From Candidatus Cloacimonadales bacterium (GTDB lineage: Bacteria > Cloacimonadota > Cloacimonadia > Cloacimonadales > JAFGVF01), in NCBI GenBank assembly GCA_963677495.2, contig CAXXOU010000004.1:416001-480000 (forward strand): a stretch of 64,000 nucleotides of DNA, in the 5' to 3' direction. The notes beneath the pieces were generated by a model that had not been told where the DNA came from, did not search any database, and worked only from the letters and a program-made list of their open reading frames with translations. A program made the translations under genes and the position numbers. Positions 6,321 to 53,772 of the stretch are shown here, piece by piece (within the stretch, counting starts at the first letter, position 1; each line of letters begins with the position of its first letter).

Positions 6321-7268
6321 ATGGATTATAGCTTTGGAAAGAATGGTTGGACACCGGATAGAATTAGGGACTTAACAGGCAAAACATTCCTAATAACAGG
6401 TGCTACAAGTGGCACAGGTTTTGAAGCAGCTAAGATACTTGCATCCAAAGGTGCAAAAGTAGTAATGCTAAACCGGAACCCTAAGAAATCAGAAGGTGTG
6501 ATTGCAACTATCAAACAGGAAATCGGTAGCAAAGCAGATGTTTCTTACATAACTATGGACCTTGGAGTTCAAGCTTCAGTAAAAAAGGCAGCATCAGAGG
6601 TATTGAATACAGTTTCACGCATCGATGCTTTGATGTGTAATGGAGCGATAGCACAAGTACCCAAGCAACAGTTCACAGTGGATGGTTTTGAGAGCCAGCT
6701 TGGTGTTAATCACTATGGACACTTTACTCTACAAGCCCTGCTCTTTCCCTTGATCGAGAAATCTAAAGGTCGAATAGTTACGGTGGGAAGTATGGGCTAT
6801 AATATGGGCATTAAAACAATCAAGTTCGACGATATGAACTGGGATAAGAACTATAAACCAAACGATGCTTATAGTCAGAGTAAACTAGCGCAGATAATGT
6901 CTATTTATGAATTGCAGGATAGATTAGCTAAAGCCGGCAGAACAGATGTTAAAGCTTATGCCTGCCATCCCGGCTCCTCAAAAACATCACTCATAACAAC
7001 AAGTGGTAATCTGGCAACTCGCATCATGTTTAAACTAATGACCTTATCACCGATGGTTCAATCCGCAGAGAAAGGAGCATATCCTGAACTTATGTGTGCT
7101 ACAGAACCTAATCTTGATCAGAAAGGTTTCTATGGTCCGACAGGTCGCAGTTACTGGGTAGGTCCGGTAGGCGAGTGTAAGCTTGAACCACATGCAAAGG
7201 ATAAGAAAGTATCAAAGAGATTATGGGAAGTCTCAGAGAAAGCAACTGGTATTAAGTGGGATATATGA
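6321..7268 (+). CDS. Short-chain dehydrogenase/reductase (retinol dehydrogenase-like)
   Basis: ITGATSGTG, YSQSK catalytic motif, ACHPG. Confidence 0.9.
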   Translation: MDYSFGKNGWTPDRIRDLTGKTFLITGATSGTGFEAAKILASKGAKVVMLNRNPKKSEGVIATIKQEIGSKADVSYITMDLGVQASVKKAASEVLNTVSRIDALMCNGAIAQVPKQQFTVDGFESQLGVNHYGHFTLQALLFPLIEKSKGRIVTVGSMGYNMGIKTIKFDDMNWDKNYKPNDAYSQSKLAQIMSIYELQDRLAKAGRTDVKAYACHPGSSKTSLITTSGNLATRIMFKLMTLSPMVQSAEKGAYPELMCATEPNLDQKGFYGPTGRSYWVGPVGECKLEPHAKDKKVSKRLWEVSEKATGIKWDI

Positions 7269-7270
7269 AT

Positions 7271-7940
7271 ATGGATTTAACCGACGATGTCGGTCAAAAT
7301 GTGGAGTTAACCGACTGCGTCGGTTTGTCTTGTAATAGATAGTTTATTGGCAAAAATTAGTTTCATTATGCTTTCTGAAGGTTACATTGGCAGTTGCATC
7401 TACATAGTATATGCAGTCCAAAATATGGAATTAACCGACAATGTCGGTTTGTCCTGTGGCTCTTGGTTTAATGGCTAATTTTGTTTCATTATGCTTTCTG
7501 AAGGTTCCATTGCAGTTGCATCTACATAGTATATGCAGTCCAAAAGTGCTAACCCTGAAAGGGTTACCTATGAGTAGCACCGAATACAATTCGGGGTTTA
7601 GGAATACAGATTTATCCTAACCCCAACGGGGTTAAATTTGTTCAAGATTATGTTATGGCATATTCGACCCCGTTGGGGTCGCTGGCTCTTATGGGACATC
7701 CGACCATGCATTGCATGGCTACTCACATGCTATCCCTCTGGGATAAGCAAAGAGGACAGCAATAATGCTACCCTCATTTAACATAATCTCATACTTCAAG
7801 AAATGTGGGATAATGGCTTCAATGTTTATTAGCTGACTTATGTTATAGCATTTTATCCTGAAGGGATAACCTAATAATAGCCATGGTGCTTTAGCTCATG
7901 GATAAGATTTGATTTCCAAATCCCGACCCTGAAGGGGTCG
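7271..7940. repeat. Cluster of REP/MITE-like modules: tandem ~124-nt units plus 17-nt palindromes
   Basis: Units 7301-7423 and 7425-7545; palindromes TAACCCTGAAAGGGTTA, TAACCCCAACGGGGTTA, CGACCCCGTTGGGGTCG, TATCCCTCTGGGATA, TTATCCTGAAGGGATAA, CGACCCTGAAGGGGTCG. Confidence 0.8.
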
Positions 7941-34954: not shown

Positions 34955-35253
34955 TTTTAAACTCCTTCCAAATAACACTCAATATTTATAATGACTTAAG
35001 AAAACAAGTTAAGTTTTTGGTCAATATAAATGAATGGATTTATGTATACAGTTTGTTAGCTAACTTTTACATTAGAGTCACTTTACTAACAAGTCTCTTC
35101 TAGTCGTAAAAGAAATGAATTATCCAAGAGCGTAATATACTTTCCTTGAATGCCTGTTAACAACAATGTAAAGAAGCCTAATTCTAGCTTAACAGATTAC
35201 ATTTGTGTTGACAATCTATGCACCGTACTTTCTTTTCTAACCGAGAGGTTATT

Positions 35254-37074
35254 ATGAAAAAATCGATACTAATAGTTTTAGCTATATTGTTAACATTGAG
35301 TCTGAGAGCAGAAGAGGGAGTGAAGATGGATAGATTAGATTGGTTTAAGGATGCAAAGCTTGGTATTTTCATCCATTGGGGTATATATTCAGTGAACGGG
35401 ATTGATGAATCCTGGTCTTTTTATAACAACTATATCCCATATGAAGACTACATGAAGCAAGCATCAAGATTCACAGCAAAGAAATATAAACCCAAAAGCT
35501 GGGCAAAGCTAATCAAATCTACAGGTGCAAAATATGCTGTACTAACTACCAAACATCATGATGGTATAGCATTATGGGACACCAAACTAAGTGAACTTAA
35601 TGTGCTTGAAAAGACTCCAGCAGGAAAGGATTTGGTAGAACCTTTCTGTAAAGCTTTACGAGATGAAGATATTAAAGTTGGACTATATTATTCACTTATA
35701 GATTGGTCAGATCATCGATACCCAAATTTCCTTATTAACAAGAAACGTTATGAGAAGGATGAACGTAAATGGAGTGAGTTTGTTGAGTTCTATCAAGGAC
35801 AGTTAGAAGAGTTATCTACAATGTATAACCCTGATCTTTACTGGTTTGATGGAGATTGGGAGTTTACAGCAGAAGAGTGGAAGGCAGAAGAACTTAAAGA
35901 GAAGCTTTTGACTTGGAATCCTAATGTTATTACCAACTCAAGACTACAGGGGTACGGTGATTATGAAACTCCGGAACAGGGAGTGCCAATCAATAAGCCT
36001 GATAGTGAAACTTGGGAACTATGTTTAACAATGAATGATTCCTGGGGTTATCAGCATAACGACAAAAACTACAAGTCACCTTATGAAATTATTCATACAT
36101 TTGTTGATTGTATCTCTATGGGAGGCAATCTACTTCTTGATATTGGACCTAAAGAGGATGGCTCAATACCGGATGAGCAAGTCGAGATTTTGGAAGAACT
36201 TGCACGCTGGAATAGAAAGCATTATGAAGCTGTTTTTGAAAGTGATGCCGGGATTGATAGAAAACACACTGATTATCCAACAACTCTTTCAAAGGATAAG
36301 AGATCATTGTATATTTTCTTACCACATACACCGACAATCTTTGTTCCTTTGAGAATTAGAGGATTGCAATCAGAAGTTGTATCATGCACTATTCTTGATA
36401 AAAAGAATACTCCTCTCAAATGGGAGAAACGTAACTCTAATCTGATAATAGAAGCTCCTAGTGCAGAACTTGATCCTATGATGAGCGTTATAAAAGTTAC
36501 ATTGAATACAGAAATAGAACTTACTGATGAGTTTGACTTGAATATAAACTCTATTATCTCAGAGGATTATAGGGCATTTAAAGGCTTTGGTTTAATTGCA
36601 CAGGACTATATTGAACTAGCAACAAAGGCAACTGTAAATGATACTATGCTTAGTTCAATATCAGAACAGATATTTAAAGATTACAGCATCGATAGCCCCA
36701 ATCCATTCTACTTCACTACCCTTGATCTAAAGAAGTGGATAAACAAAAATCAAGAAGCCTTTTTCAATGCCCAACCCGGACTCCCCGAAGGTTACTTCCA
36801 AGGTCGTACTTCTTTATCTGAAAATAGAGATGTACTGTTCCTTTATGTACCGGGTAAAGCAAATGGCTCAATTGCAATCAAGGGATTGAAGAACAAAATC
36901 AACCGTATCCGTGTTGTTGGCTCAGGTGTAAAACTTTCATGGGATATTCACAACAAACTCTATTGGAATGAGAAGCCCGGAATTGTCTATATCGATCTGC
37001 CGAAATCAGAATGCGATGACTTCATGACCATTATCGCTGTTCAACTGAATGGTGAGATTGAATTGGAGGAGTAG
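35254..37074 (+). CDS. Alpha-L-fucosidase (GH29), secreted
   Basis: WFKDAKLGIFIHWGIYS, TTKHHDG, WFDGDW nucleophile, GNLLLDIGP; signal peptide. Confidence 0.92.
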   Translation: MKKSILIVLAILLTLSLRAEEGVKMDRLDWFKDAKLGIFIHWGIYSVNGIDESWSFYNNYIPYEDYMKQASRFTAKKYKPKSWAKLIKSTGAKYAVLTTKHHDGIALWDTKLSELNVLEKTPAGKDLVEPFCKALRDEDIKVGLYYSLIDWSDHRYPNFLINKKRYEKDERKWSEFVEFYQGQLEELSTMYNPDLYWFDGDWEFTAEEWKAEELKEKLLTWNPNVITNSRLQGYGDYETPEQGVPINKPDSETWELCLTMNDSWGYQHNDKNYKSPYEIIHTFVDCISMGGNLLLDIGPKEDGSIPDEQVEILEELARWNRKHYEAVFESDAGIDRKHTDYPTTLSKDKRSLYIFLPHTPTIFVPLRIRGLQSEVVSCTILDKKNTPLKWEKRNSNLIIEAPSAELDPMMSVIKVTLNTEIELTDEFDLNINSIISEDYRAFKGFGLIAQDYIELATKATVNDTMLSSISEQIFKDYSIDSPNPFYFTTLDLKKWINKNQEAFFNAQPGLPEGYFQGRTSLSENRDVLFLYVPGKANGSIAIKGLKNKINRIRVVGSGVKLSWDIHNKLYWNEKPGIVYIDLPKSECDDFMTIIAVQLNGEIELEE

Positions 37075-37149
37075 TTCAACATTGTATGTCGAAAGCTTAT
37101 AGTTAATAGCCTATAGCCTATAGTAAATTATACGACTTTAGTCGTCTTT

Positions 37150-37296
37150 ACCGGGTACGCGGACATCCCTGTCCGCATCTGTTTTGTACTTCGACGTTGC
37201 ACGTCGAACTTAGAACGACGTATTATGCCGTTGTGTAATGTAGTAAACCGAACACCCCTTTTCGGGCTTTGGTAGTGCAAGTGTCCCCACTTGCAC
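37150..37296. repeat. Cluster of GTAC/GTAG-initiated REP-like hairpins
   Basis: GTACGCGGACATCCCTGTCCGC (37155), GTACTTCGACGTTGCACGTCGAA (37186), GTAGTGCAAGTGTCCCCACTTGCAC (37272). Confidence 0.65.
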
Positions 37297-37339
37297 ATAG
37301 CTCGTTGAGAGCTATAACAGGGAAGCCAATCGTGTTCTG

Positions 37340-37460
37340 AAACTAGTATTGACAGCATAATCATAAACATAGTTTTACGTTTAAACGTATGGTCGCTAAG
37401 TTTTGGTCAGTGGAATCTGCCGACGTTGTCGGCACAGCAACTCAGGAGAGTCGCAGTACA
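37340..37460. repeat. Direct repeat, copy 1 (~121 nt) ending in REP-like hairpins
   Basis: Near-identical to 38172-38293; the 3' part TGCCGACGTTGTCGGCACAGCAACTCAGGAGAGTCGCAGTACA is identical. Confidence 0.9.
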
Positions 37461-37464
37461 CTTC

Positions 37465-37917
37465 TCATACAATCCAACTATCCAAACTCTGATATCTCGT
37501 CACCTTTGGTAGAAGCTCATTCTCAACAGCTTCACTGATTGTTCTGATTGGTAGGGCATTATCAATAATGTAAGTAATATCAATTGTCTTCAAATCAATC
37601 TCCGGATGTAGCTTCTTGAGTTTATACATCATAATCGTAAAGACATTGTAGGCATTATAGATACATTTTTCACCTACTGTCTCCAAGTTTCTGTTTGTTG
37701 CATAGTCCATTAGGTCGATTCTGTAAGCATCAGATGTGCTGTGATATAACCGACTAAGGTTTTGTGACTGGTTCTTAAGTGTGATGTTAGTATGGTCAAT
37801 CTTTCTTCTCTTGTATGCTCTTGCAATCAATACATCGCTTTTACGGTACCTATAAAACACGAGCTTGCCGATTTTGCCTACCAGTGCTCTGGTTATTGTG
37901 TCTAATTGAACTCTCAT
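37465..37917 (-). CDS. Hypothetical 150-aa protein with a basic N-terminus
   Basis: AAGGAG RBS; N-terminal GKIGKLVFYRYRK; homologous C-terminal fragment at 53605-53772. Confidence 0.8.
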   Translation of the reverse strand: MRVQLDTITRALVGKIGKLVFYRYRKSDVLIARAYKRRKIDHTNITLKNQSQNLSRLYHSTSDAYRIDLMDYATNRNLETVGEKCIYNAYNVFTIMMYKLKKLHPEIDLKTIDITYIIDNALPIRTISEAVENELLPKVTRYQSLDSWIV

Positions 37918-38171
37918 TTCTCTCTCCTTTGTTTAAAATCAACATTTAGCATTTAGCATTTCTAACCCCTCTATTAACATAACTATCAGAAAACACTAAC
38001 TTGTATCAGAATTATTGGCATTTTTTAATTCCTCTATAATTATATAGGAATAATTTCTTGCTTTGAGGAATAAAGATATCATATTTTTTTAGGTCCTCTA
38101 TAACTATACTGGGGGAAAAAGGAGTTGATTTAGTGAAAAGAGAGTAGTTTTTTTACTTGAATGGTGCTCAA

Positions 38172-38293
38172 AAACTAGTATTGACATGTATAATCATAAA
38201 CATAGTTCTATGTTTAAACTTATGGTTTCTAAGTCTCGGTCAGTGGAAGCTGCCGACGTTGTCGGCACAGCAACTCAGGAGAGTCGCAGTACA
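38172..38293. repeat. Direct repeat, copy 2 (~122 nt)
   Basis: Matches 37340-37460. Confidence 0.9.
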
Positions 38294-38387
38294 TGTACTC
38301 GACCACAATTAATCAGTCTTTACATGTGCGATCAAGGATAATCGCTTAATATATAAACCAGCATTTCAAGCACTTCGGTGCTGGGTA

Positions 38388-38499
38388 AATCTGAGATATT
38401 TAACCGCGGATGAACCACAGGTAAACCACGCCCAAACGGCGGGAGGCGTGGTTAACCCGTGGTTTACCCCTGGTCAACCCGTTGTCAACTGCCAGACTT
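38388..38499. repeat. Fold-back element with 11-nt-period arms
   Basis: AACC(G/A)C at 38402/38413/38424; CGTGGTT-like at 38447/38458/38469/38480. Confidence 0.8.
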
Positions 38500-38553
38500 G
38501 TGACATGGATAACACAGTCGATTCAGATGATTGTTGAAATCAGTTTTCATAAA

Positions 38554-40509
38554 CTAATTATTACCTAAAGGGAATGTTATCTCGAACCTTGTTCCTTTTC
38601 CAACTTCGCTAAAACATTGAATGGAACCGGACTGTTTGTTAACAAGTTCTTTCACAAGTACCATGCCCATACCTACACCCTTTTCATTAGCTGTACCTAT
38701 AATAGAATCTGAAACCAGCTCAAAGATTGTGTCAGCTTTTTCTTGTGGCATACCAACACCTGAATCTTTAATTGTTAAAATCAAGCTCTGAACATCCCTT
38801 TCTTCAGAAACTACAATTTTACCACTTTCTGTTGAGTATTTAATGGCATTTTGAACAATGTTCCTGAAAATAGTTTTTAATGAGATATACTCAGCAGTGA
38901 TTGTTGAATTGCTTGCAATACTGTTCTCAATAAAAACACCTTTGTCTTTAAGACGTTTCTTAAAGAAGTTTATAATCTCTTCAAAACAATCAAAAAGATA
39001 TATCTCCTCTTTTGATCTTTCAAGTCCGGATATTACTTCTTTACTCCAGCCAACAAGATCTTCTGTCAATTTGTATGTTTTGCTAACAGTCTCTTTTATG
39101 TTAATCAAAACCACATCATCATGATAGAAGTCGTCAGGTTTATCAATGAGTTGTAACATCTGGTCAACAATACCCATCGGTCCCCTTATATCATGAGTTA
39201 TAATAGAGATCAATTTATCACGTATGCTCTTCTCCTCTTTAAGGTTAGCTAGATTATTTATGAGAAGTGCTTTATCATGCGCAAGTTCGTAATTTAAGTA
39301 TTTAAGCTCATTCAGTTTCTCTTGATAAGCAGAAAGAGCAATAGAATCGTTACTTTCATTTAATGTGGAGTTTATATCTTCTATGGAAGTAGCGTATGCA
39401 TCAGTTCTACTTTTCTTTAAAAACTCATTGTAGTTGGTAGACCATTCTAATGCTTGTTCAAACTCTCCAATAGCTTTGTAATAGCTAATTCTTAAATCAG
39501 GTAAATTCATATGAAACTTGTCATCTGTAAGAGTATCTGATAAGTCTAGGTATTTCTTCACTGTATCATAATCTTCTAGCTTCATAGAACAGCTCATAAT
39601 CATCTGATAGAAGTTTAAGCGTTCATGGTTACTTTCTTTAGACTCTACCAGCTCAAGTACACTCATTAACAGATCAAGTGCTTCTTGATACTTCTCTAAA
39701 GTATAAAGGTAGGAGCTCTTTATTCTCGTGTTAGCAAAACTATAATGTAGGTAGTAACTGTTGATACTAGTTTCTGAAAGCTTAAAATTGGGTTGAAGTT
39801 CATTAAATTGCTTATCAAATCTATCAAGATACTCTTTAGCATTTTCTGGTTCATTCATTAGAATATGACATGAAGCAAGATTATTAAAAATAAGAGGTAA
39901 TAATTTACTTTTATCCGGCTCAGAGATAGTATCAATTGCCATAAGAAAATAGTGAATAGCTTGATCGAAATTGCTTAGTGCCATATAGGTTACACCAATA
40001 TTGGTCAGAATTCTATAGAAGAGAGGGGACTCATCCTGATTATACTTGTTTGAAAATGTGTATGCTTGCATTAAATGCCATAAAGCTTTTCGATATTCAG
40101 CACGGTTCTTGTAGATAACAGCAATGTTTGAGTGAACATCCATTAGCAACTCATTTGTATCCTCACTAGTACAGTTACGGAGAGCTTCCTGATAATAATG
40201 GAGTGATTCATCAAGCTTACTGAGCTGAGATTTAATAATACCAAGGTTAGAGAAGAATCTGACCTTCTGCTCCTGTTCACCAAAATCTCTAACTATATCA
40301 ATACTTTTCTCAGCAGTAATCTCCAGTGATTTAAAGTCATATGTAAACACGAAATCGGAATGCAACTGTAATAGGATTAAATCAATACCCTCTTTACTTG
40401 GTAAAGTATACTTGGACTTTAATTCTAACATAAGATTTTTGAAGGCAGACTTATCCTGTGTTGCTATGTATTGTTTTAGTTCTTTCTTTTCCTGTTTGAA
40501 GCTCATCAC
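38554..40509 (-). CDS. TPR-repeat cytoplasmic sensor histidine kinase
   Basis: TPR motifs (SNLGII, TNIGVTY); H-box ITHDIRGP; N-box NIVQNAIKYS; DSGVGM and GVGMG boxes. Confidence 0.9.
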   Translation of the reverse strand: MMSFKQEKKELKQYIATQDKSAFKNLMLELKSKYTLPSKEGIDLILLQLHSDFVFTYDFKSLEITAEKSIDIVRDFGEQEQKVRFFSNLGIIKSQLSKLDESLHYYQEALRNCTSEDTNELLMDVHSNIAVIYKNRAEYRKALWHLMQAYTFSNKYNQDESPLFYRILTNIGVTYMALSNFDQAIHYFLMAIDTISEPDKSKLLPLIFNNLASCHILMNEPENAKEYLDRFDKQFNELQPNFKLSETSINSYYLHYSFANTRIKSSYLYTLEKYQEALDLLMSVLELVESKESNHERLNFYQMIMSCSMKLEDYDTVKKYLDLSDTLTDDKFHMNLPDLRISYYKAIGEFEQALEWSTNYNEFLKKSRTDAYATSIEDINSTLNESNDSIALSAYQEKLNELKYLNYELAHDKALLINNLANLKEEKSIRDKLISIITHDIRGPMGIVDQMLQLIDKPDDFYHDDVVLINIKETVSKTYKLTEDLVGWSKEVISGLERSKEEIYLFDCFEEIINFFKKRLKDKGVFIENSIASNSTITAEYISLKTIFRNIVQNAIKYSTESGKIVVSEERDVQSLILTIKDSGVGMPQEKADTIFELVSDSIIGTANEKGVGMGMVLVKELVNKQSGSIQCFSEVGKGTRFEITFPLGNN

Positions 40510-47489: not shown

Positions 47490-47688
47490 TACTCAGGGTC
47501 TTCTATGAAATGCTGAAAACTTGGTTTTCATAGCTTTCATAATTAGATTGAAAGAAAGCTTGCTTGTTGGAATCATAGCGATTACTCATTACAACTGTCG
47601 TAATGATTCTAACAACAGAATCACCTACACAGTGGCTTTTGCAATAACTTAGCTATATTTACTGCCCTTTTATCCCTCTTTAACTGCT

Positions 47689-47816
47689 CTATCCATCAAC
47701 GCACTGTGTTTGCACTGTGCACGCACTGTGATCCCACTGTCAACCCACTGTTTCACTGGGTGCACAGTGCGTGCACAGTGGAAAAACAGTGGGATGACTG
47801 CGTTTTGGTGGATAGT
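47689..47816. repeat. Fold-back element with 11-nt-period arms
   Basis: CACTGT at 47702/47713/47724/47735/47746; ACAGTG at 47764/47775/47786; closing stem CTATCCATCAA/TTGGTGGATAG. Confidence 0.85.
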
Positions 47817-53595: not shown

Positions 53596-53604
53596 ACTAC
53601 AAAG

Positions 53605-53772
53605 ATGATGAATAAATTACACAAAGCATATCCCGAAGTTGATCTTAAAACGCTGACACCTGAGGATGTTGTTGCACTTAACTTGCTTGTCATCACGATT
53701 AAAATGGCTGTTGAGAGTGAGTTATTGCCTGCAATAGAAGAAATAAGTGATTTGATACATCCAATCTTATAG
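53605..53772 (+). pseudogene. 5'-truncated paralogue of the 37465-37917 protein
   Basis: MMNKLHKAYPEVDLKTLTPEDVVALNLLVITIKMAVESELLPAI aligns with MMYKLKKLHPEIDLKTIDITYIIDNALPIRTISEAVENELLPKV. Confidence 0.75.

Follow-up and report, generated by a model that had tools for sequence, protein, structure and literature searches.

Introduction

Repetitive extragenic palindromic (REP) sequences of Escherichia coli are described as imperfect palindromes in which a GTAG tag precedes the foot of the stem on its 5' side, and REPs and inverse REPs (iREPs) are joined by linkers into bacterial interspersed mosaic elements (BIMEs), of which BIME-2 forms tandem units (PMC3333891). GTAG-tagged REPs have been reported from eight phyla (PMC3733652), and accounts of Pseudomonas and Enterobacteria describe lineage-specific, non-autonomous repeats (REPINs, two inverted REPs that make one long hairpin) tied to a single-copy REP-associated tyrosine transposase (RAYT) (PMC3116915, PMC5581495). 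Here we analyzed a stretch of 64,000 nucleotides (hereafter the window; G000:C4:416001-480000) from the genome of a Candidatus Cloacimonadales bacterium (3.4 Mb, 37% G+C, four contigs), in which the gene for a 150-amino-acid protein lies between two direct repeats, next to a fold-back with an 11-nt period. We consider it likely that the direct repeats represent units of a REP/BIME-like element confined to one genus, that a RAYT-like gene elsewhere in the genome is their candidate mover and that the gene is a resident of a repeat island, these three statements being taken together. Coordinates without a contig name are those of the window, and C1 to C4 are contigs of the source genome unless another genome is named.

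The locus and its relatives resemble the E. coli REPtron, that is, REP/BIME-2 with the transposase TnpA-REP (RayT, YafM) as presented in PMC3333891, in having short tagged hairpins of two related, inverted REP types with linkers, a mosaic unit amplified in tandem, a gene of the Y1 HUH type between REPs, an intergenic position (here between convergent genes) and an insertion sequence (IS) within an array. They differ in that the unit measures 194 nt and its linker of about 140 nt holds three palindromes, compared with the REPs of about 30-40 nt and the short linkers of that account, in that the second tag is GTAC rather than GTAG, and in that a 64-nt sub-unit is also amplified separately. The host differs as well, being an uncultured bacterium of the Cloacimonadota with 14 Y1 genes. 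The repeats are best read as a new, long-linker member of the REP/BIME-RAYT kind. In a literature search on repeats of 'Cloacamonas acidaminovorans', no title among those listed dealt with such repeats, REP or RAYT in Cloacimonadota under other names lying outside that search. In a phylum without a cultured model, a REP/BIME-type repeat with a named candidate transposase replaces the excisable cassette that a first-pass annotation of this DNA had proposed.

Anatomy of the repeat unit

Repeat search, BLAST and tandem-repeat search all recovered the arrangement first described for this locus, namely direct repeats around an intact gene with an 11-nt fold-back adjoining, and none of the direct repeats, the gene, the fold-back or the multicopy protein family is a chance match. 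Genome-wide BLAST placed the direct repeats at 37328-37460 and 38160-38293 (both plus strand), about 830 nt apart and about 90% identical across 134 nt. The repeat search resolved them into a longer segment (37357-37460 against 38190-38293, 104 nt, 92%) and a shorter one (37328-37354 against 38160-38186, 27 nt, 85%), so that the true left edge lies about 12 nt to the left of where it had been placed.

Both repeats are parts of a unit of about 194 nt that, in alignments of 29 full units and of 28 distinct units, contains five local hairpins. The left copy has all five, from 37272 onwards. REP_A, the first hairpin of the mosaic unit (37272-37295, plus strand; GTAGTGCAAGTGTCCCCACTTGCA), was found by pattern scan and consists of a GTAG tag, an 8-bp stem and a TCCC loop; it is followed by hairpin B (37297-37315, plus strand; ATAGCTC-GTTGA-GAGCTAT), a conserved hairpin of the linker. 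The direct repeat itself then comprises further linker with a variable hairpin (TACGTTT/AAACGTA, 37376-37389, plus strand), the palindrome P1 (37418-37434, plus strand), which shows compensatory changes at one of its seven stem pairs (GC in 22 rows, AU in four), and the core, with REP_P2, the iREP, on the minus strand at 37436-37459 (GTAC tag, stem and TCCT loop, also from the pattern scan). The extension into the first two hairpins (37272-37315) is confined to the left copy; the right repeat begins within the linker and has the same modules without REP_A and hairpin B, its REP_P2 lying at 38269-38292 on the minus strand.

REP_A has the form GTAG-TGCGAGTG-TCCC-CACTTGCA and REP_P2, read on the minus strand, the form GTAC-TGCGACTC-TCCT-GAGTTGCT. 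The two are identical at 17 of 24 positions, the two differences in the stem are of the compensatory kind, and each type shows a G/A polymorphism at one and the same stem position. The fourth stem pair of REP_A is G.T in most copies (A-T in the window copy), whereas 19 of 28 aligned copies of REP_P2 have A.C as their third pair when read on the plus strand, and hence G.T when read on the minus strand. The wobble pairs thus fall on the plus strand in REP_A and on the minus strand in REP_P2, and the two hairpins, each read on its own strand, are objects of one kind. A shared 24-nt template matched 106 times genome-wide, and pattern scans counted 54 copies of REP_A and 60 of REP_P2. Among 79 neighbouring pairs, 65 joined a REP_A to a REP_P2 and every one of these was inverted, 27 head to head with a gap of at most 10 nt and 38 with a gap of 11-260 nt (about 140 nt in a full unit, across a linker that holds the further palindromes); the remaining 14 were of the same type in the same orientation.

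The repeat gave 72 BLAST hits in the genome, 94 with a profile of the 29 full copies and 72 with a profile of the 60-nt core, which amounts to about 70 core modules, spread over all four contigs at roughly 33 loci. Tandem arrays with a period of 194 or 64 nt are frequent, including eight head-to-tail units at C2:182207-183764 (period 194 nt), long arrays at C4:1448275-1453206 and a core-only array of five cores at C4:1323715-1324030 (period 64 nt). In our own ORF-based gene set, which is approximate (2471 genes, 87% of the DNA) and in which related copies are not independent, 64 gene flanks carry a core module. The family was found in four of 232 Cloacimonadota genomes, all of genus g1. Four core copies (C3:463514-463653, C4:993982-994073, C2:184953-185047 and C4:1499111-1499202) are interrupted in the region of the REP_P2 hairpin by an insert of about 30-35 nt, which in one of them has the opposite orientation; these inserts look like another small element nested in the repeat.

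Measured against the known classes, REP_A and REP_P2 are imperfect palindromes within the 20-40 nt of a REP with a GTAG-type tetranucleotide 5' of the stem, they are extragenic and of high copy number, and they alternate inversely with linkers in tandem mosaic units (arrays of up to eight), as in BIME-2. They do not combine into the one long hairpin of a REPIN, differing at 7 of 24 positions and standing 4 nt or about 140 nt apart. RNAalifold likewise predicted separate local hairpins on either strand; the long-range pairings that it proposed (UGAC/GUCA, and those of the unit ends) were dropped because variant copies do not keep them.

Units of this structure might instead be small-RNA (sRNA) genes, either an sRNA array or a protein-sponge RNA with GGA-loop hairpins, with the 150-amino-acid protein as partner. 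Several hairpins are indeed kept by compensatory changes, the P2 loop reads AGGA on the plus strand, the 64-nt core-only tandems resemble repeated binding modules, and the words TTGACA and TATAAT occur in the conserved 5' part of the unit. These two hexamers, however, are only 2 nt apart and hence do not make a sigma-70-type promoter, and the promoter scan listed none there. Rfam held no family for the repeat, by gathering score across the whole window or at E values up to 10 over 37100-38520, returning two tRNAs and chance rows only. The wobble pairs on opposite strands speak for inverted DNA hairpins rather than for one RNA, the core has received insertions of other small elements, units flank the RAYT-like gene in two species (see below), and the orientation of the unit relative to the 150-amino-acid gene is inconsistent over six loci. 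Transcription would in part be compatible with a REP/BIME-like element too, REPs elsewhere being reported as often transcribed (PMC3733652). We regard an sRNA function as improbable.

A candidate transposase within the largest array

The repeat family probably has its own transposase elsewhere in the source genome. The largest array of the family, about 1 Mb from the window, contains a RAYT-like ORF for a protein of 206 amino acids (C4:1452046-1452666), with REP_A on the plus strand (1451945) to one side of it and REP_P2 on the minus strand (1452729) to the other. Its product carries an HVH motif (PNHVHLIL), and the model NF047646 ('REP-associated tyrosine transposase') scores it above the IS200-type genes of the same genome. 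A sister species with a complete genome encodes an orthologue of 68% identity (G113:C1:853186-853791), which scores 81.5 bits with NF047646 (cut-off 80) and 27.9 bits with Pfam Y1_Tnp (cut-off 23). There too the gene is flanked by repeats of this family, with three repeat units upstream and a REP_A and a further unit directly after the gene, and the final core words overlap into its end. In the source genome an IS21 element (IstA with rve and Mu-transposase C-terminal domains, and IstB; C4:1449064-1451329) splits the array between a paralogue of the 150-amino-acid gene and the RAYT-like gene, whereas the orthologous array of the sister species is uninterrupted and has no IS21.

By analogy with E. 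coli, a RAYT-type Y1 HUH transposase is predicted to bind the tagged hairpins on single-stranded DNA, to cleave beside them and to transfer the strand. Such transfer could disperse the units and amplify them head to tail, a step that we model on TnpA-REP of E. coli, for which cleavage and strand transfer in vitro are described (PMC3333891). Units would accumulate where insertions are tolerated, for example in the long non-coding flanks of stand-alone genes.

The RAYT-like gene belongs to a larger set. The source genome holds 14 matches to Y1_Tnp (IS200-like), of which 13 exceed the Pfam cut-off and one contains an internal stop. For at least 12 of the 14, multicopy repeats occur on each side at no more than 800 nt; ten proteins match NF047646, and RAYT-like genes occur in 176 of the 232 Cloacimonadota genomes. 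In IS200/IS605 elements and their derivatives without tnpA (palindrome-associated transposable elements, PATEs), a Y1 transposase acts on subterminal hairpins of single-stranded DNA, and the short derivatives lack the gene. The RAYT-like gene likewise sits inside a unit, between two end hairpins; unlike in IS200/IS605, TnpB is missing from the source genome (no match to PF07282) and the units stand in arrays rather than as single insertions at a fixed target word. As in REPIN-RAYT systems, a lineage-specific family of non-autonomous repeats is tied to a single-copy transposase, and the pair is common to two sister species at the same locus, which fits vertical inheritance. Unlike in the REPIN-RAYT systems described, the REPs are too distant from one another as well as too diverged for a single long hairpin, long head-to-tail arrays are prominent, and the ten RAYT-like genes compare with the 1.3-1.8 per replicon given in one survey (PMC5581495).

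The gene as a probable resident of the island

The gene for the 150-amino-acid protein (37465-37917, minus strand) is intact, has a strong Shine-Dalgarno sequence (AAAGGAGAGAGAA) just ahead of its ATG and converges on the left repeat, its stop codon lying 4 nt from the repeat end. Repeat search and pattern match found two copies of TATA(A/G)TTATAGAGGA, 64 nt apart, upstream of it (38021-38108, minus strand), and four of the five matches to this motif in the genome lie upstream of the window gene (two) and of two of its closest paralogues. The same region contains two copies of a conserved motif TTTTC.CCCAGTATAGTTATAGAGGA that recurs upstream of two of the closest paralogues (C3:297206 and C4:1070940), with a variant upstream of a more distant paralogue (C3:291415, 27% identity). 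The upstream motif is a candidate promoter or operator, and probably a shared one. With its own ribosome-binding site and a subclade-specific upstream motif, the gene would be a resident of the repeat island rather than its cargo.

An excisable unit had been proposed earlier, in which the gene and its upstream region would be freed by recombination between the direct repeats. Two 90%-identical direct repeats at this spacing are in principle a substrate for RecA-dependent deletion, and genes interrupt repeat arrays at three loci (the window paralogue, the RAYT-like gene and IS21). The repeats, however, belong to the dispersed and tandem family of about 70 modules, and only one of 22 paralogues, that of the window, is bracketed on both sides. 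Five others have the repeat on one side only, which may be the upstream or the downstream one, at distances from 68 to about 300 nt and with copies in both strand orientations, and the gene-repeat junctions vary among loci in distance and orientation. The closest pair of paralogues (97% identical DNA) has 822 bp in common, which comprise the gene and about 316 nt upstream and end 5 nt past the stop codon. Eight further pairs were compared. Five of them have little more than the gene in common, one shares the gene and about 500 nt downstream, and two that include the window gene share no detectable coding DNA; in the closest pairs it is the gene alone, or the gene with its upstream region, that is shared, and no repeat ends. 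The best DNA match to the window gene in the sister species has neither REP_A nor REP_P2 within about 1.3 kb.

Sequencing data pointed the same way. In Logan contigs from four DNA runs of one sample, the runs listed for this sequence, with none of RNA among them, the contig with the gene has about the depth of both flank contigs, a weak comparison as each contig carries a single depth and rare variants are dropped. Contigs over 36500-39100 break at the repeats, and their other joints are short-sided and repeat-derived. One joint (37334>38173) was taken up as a candidate repeat-to-repeat deletion and rejected, because its six extra letters match another copy of the repeat at C4:993717, and no excision product was seen. 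An orthologous site, empty or filled, was found neither in genome G111, where different genes follow the fucosidase that flanks the locus, nor in the sister species, which has no match to that fucosidase, since synteny is not kept in these relatives. An integron gene cassette was also considered and set aside. An attC site is a single imperfect palindrome with R'' and R' core sites, whereas the unit folds into five local hairpins rather than one long stem, and none of four matches to the integron integrase model TIGR02249 in the source genome reaches the cut-off (best 77.5 compared with 265 bits). We therefore consider an excisable or mobile cassette very unlikely.

Paralogues in repeat-rich islands

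Self-BLAST of the intergenic DNA showed that 29% of its bases (132 kb) have at least five other copies, and at least 40 nt of such repeat are present in 463 of 1904 intergenic regions. For this very high repeat load, in a genome with 14 Y1 genes, transposition of REP-like units by RAYT-like proteins is a candidate mechanism. Paralogues of the 150-amino-acid gene are concentrated in this DNA: 20 of the 22 have a repeat-bearing flank, compared with 803 of 2449 other genes, and nine have repeats on both flanks, compared with 93 of 2449 (odds ratio 17.5, P=8e-8). The core of the REP family described here lies on a flank of six of the 22 and of 56 of the 2449. What these counts establish is that paralogues and repeats occupy the same places; they do not speak to a mechanism.

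Among the 22 paralogues, ten are arranged as five back-to-back pairs whose members lie 4-8 kb from each other. We examined three of the slots between them (C1:775356-781893, C4:778167-782535 and C3:291895-297205), and two hold a DNA methylase, in one case a type II methyltransferase (MTase) with an LmuB-like gene and in the other a C5 MTase with a HATPase protein; the third has a PIN-domain gene and two genes without a match. This is reminiscent of core defence hot spots with conserved flanking genes, although the window paralogue is a solo copy among housekeeping genes. The family is tied to islands rich in repeats and in defence genes. Elsewhere in the phylum, a paralogue and a RAYT-like gene stand 374 nt apart on opposite strands at G015:C5:64606-65776 (genus g6 and family f3, neither of them that of the source genome). 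By a hand count without a control, at least 17 of 150 listed paralogue matches start within 1 kb of a contig start in the fragmented assemblies of the phylum, which suggests that, throughout the phylum, these genes have repeats next to them at which assemblies break.

Several observations weigh against the combined reading of a REP/BIME-like element, its RAYT and a merely resident gene. With 194 nt, five hairpins and about 140 nt of linker, the unit far exceeds a classical BIME or REPIN in length, and its two REPs are too diverged for one long REPIN hairpin. Covariation in the core is thin, with two of 14 pairs changed on both sides among closely related copies. Over the full set of intergenic hairpins, GTAG shows a 3.7-fold enrichment as the 5' tag and yet is not the commonest tag, so that this global test is too noisy for use. 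The RAYT-like protein of the source genome falls below the cut-offs that its orthologue passes, scoring 75.7 bits (E 3e-21) with NF047646 and 20.0 bits with Pfam Y1_Tnp. We infer its movement of the repeats from position, and an IS200-type gene at C1:910648 also adjoins partial units, so the assignment to one RAYT is not exclusive. Lastly, when only repeat-bearing flanks are counted, the REP core is still enriched beside paralogues (7 of 29 compared with 57 of 896, P=0.0025), and the gene immediately before the RAYT array of the sister species is a paralogue. To speak of mere co-residence may therefore understate the relation.

The enrichment on both flanks, the excess of the REP core, the Y1 and RAYT neighbours (the next gene is a paralogue for two of the 14 Y1 genes of the source genome) and the defence-type genes in two of three slots raise another reading, in which the 150-amino-acid family would act as an island-boundary factor of a new kind. 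Its genes would mark, and perhaps help to define, sites that gather RAYT-driven repeats, IS elements and defence cassettes, and the protein could assist or target Y1 transposases as their partner, or could insulate variable slots. We think this unlikely to be the case, and retain the REP/BIME-like element with a resident gene as the preferred account.

A phylum-specific protein family

As had been surmised from the window alone, the protein is multicopy. The source genome contains 22 whole or nearly whole paralogues (one shortened at the C terminus) and one fragment, and a ribosome-binding site is recognisable in 21 of the 22, the exception probably being an artefact of choosing an upstream TTG start. 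The view that it is a small basic nucleic-acid binder did not extend to the family: in the window protein the N-terminal 41 residues have an isoelectric point (pI) of 11.0 and the remainder one of 6.3, but paralogues range from pI 4.8 to 9.8 and the basic N terminus is limited to one subclade. A profile of the paralogues retrieved 365 cluster representatives at E values up to 0.001 among 1.84 billion proteins, and most of the best 150 of the 365 are stand-alone proteins of about 150 amino acids. Of the 232 Cloacimonadota genomes, 136 have the family, among them all 98 of family f3, and copy numbers of ten or more are frequent. Its distribution matches neither that of this repeat nor that of the RAYT-like genes, the latter occurring in 20 of 21 genomes of family f17 and 53 of 62 of family f12, compared with 0 of 21 and 10 of 62 for the protein.

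No transposase motif was found among the Pfam, NCBIfam, PHROG and PADLOC matches, in agreement with the first-pass annotation. Pfam gave nothing at E values up to 1 for the 150-amino-acid query and scattered chance-level rows for 24 and for 137 relatives, PHROG and PADLOC had no match to the protein, and the one NCBIfam candidate, the UvrB model NF003673 (E 0.013, 13.9 bits compared with a cut-off of 743), was taken as noise. The AlphaFold2 model is confident (pLDDT 87.9) and shows a short helix, three short strands and then five more helices. The structure search that had been suggested as a check was run with this model and gave no meaningful fold match, the best Foldseek E values being 0.6 in the PDB and 0.3 in BFVD; VIA-align against 48,161 PDB representatives reached a best Z of 3.9, and a profile search of PDB sequences gave a best E of 0.08. 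The ESM Atlas returned unnamed Cloacimonadota clusters only, with DUF6266 the nearest named family at 0.83, a lead without Pfam confirmation. The protein belongs to an old, phylum-specific Cloacimonadota family with many copies per genome, confidently folded and without a known relative. The nearly invariant residues show no conserved catalytic constellation, and our best guess, held with low confidence, is therefore a non-enzymatic binding or regulatory protein.

These data also bear on a type III toxin-antitoxin-like pair, in which the adjacent small protein would cut the RNA of the repeat array and be neutralised by it. Short tandem repeats do adjoin the gene of a protein of about 150 amino acids at six of the 22 paralogue loci, but they lie upstream or downstream and on either strand and are absent from the other 16, and the protein occurs in 136 of the 232 genomes and the repeat in four. 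There was also no PADLOC match, and neither ToxN nor an AbiE-type protein was among the PDB fold and profile matches listed. Such a pair seems to us extremely unlikely.

The fold-back and other period-11 elements

The 11-nt-phased fold-back (38388-38499), seen in both the repeat and the tandem-repeat searches, has arms at 38400-38432 and 38445-38477 that are 79% complementary, and its 11-nt period is repeated 3.9 times at 38447-38489. It belongs to a family, separate from the REP units, that is dispersed over about 40 loci, and none of the 14 Y1 genes has a copy within 1.2 kb. Eleven is the commonest tandem period in the source genome (554 of 1956 Tandem Repeats Finder rows), and the rows of period 11, 22 and 33 merge into 423 arrays. 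The 150-amino-acid protein had been put forward as a partner of such periodic elements. A period-11 array lies within 700 nt of 11 of the 22 paralogues and of 689 of the 2449 other genes, which is nominally significant by Fisher's test (P=0.03) but not by a rank test on distance (P=0.32), and the proximity is explained by life in repeat-rich islands; the proposed partnership was not borne out.

A different element, with CACTG/CAGTG words phased at exactly 11 nt, occurs at about 94 loci, with copies at 47617-47776 in the window and at C4:1049266-1049351. One copy lies about 140 nt upstream of another RAYT-like gene (C4:1048444-1049124), which is a candidate mover of these elements. The RAYT-like genes may in this way also offer a lead on what moves 11-bp-phased elements.

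Neighbourhood and further features of the window

Two convergent housekeeping genes enclose the locus, an alpha-L-fucosidase on the left (35218-37074, plus strand) and a TPR histidine kinase on the right (38554-40509, minus strand), and the DNA between them is an intergenic 'repeat island'. Upstream of the unit, 37155-37270 (plus strand) holds three other tagged hairpins, read from the sequence, that belong to different repeat families: GTAC with GCGGACA/TGTCCGC (37155-37176, also detected as a stem-loop), GTAC with TTCGACG/CGTCGAA (37186-37208) and GTAG with an imperfect palindrome (37240-37270). This stretch has many matches, mostly at 91-100% identity, in three genomes of the same genus. 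The wider neighbourhood consists of ordinary metabolic and housekeeping genes and four ORFs of unknown or unmatched function, two of them with DUF (domain of unknown function) matches only, and no defence or mobile-element domain was found there.

At 53596-53748 (plus strand) the window contains a 51-residue remnant of a paralogue, with 43% identity to residues 93-143, on the opposite strand to the intact copy and 15.7 kb from it; the two could be a decayed back-to-back pair around mostly ordinary metabolic genes. A 124-nt tandem repeat in two copies at 7268-7545, with an AACCGAC..GTCGGTT hairpin, resembles by eye the repeats on both sides of a further RAYT-like gene (C2:265272-265808, 93 bits with NF047646).

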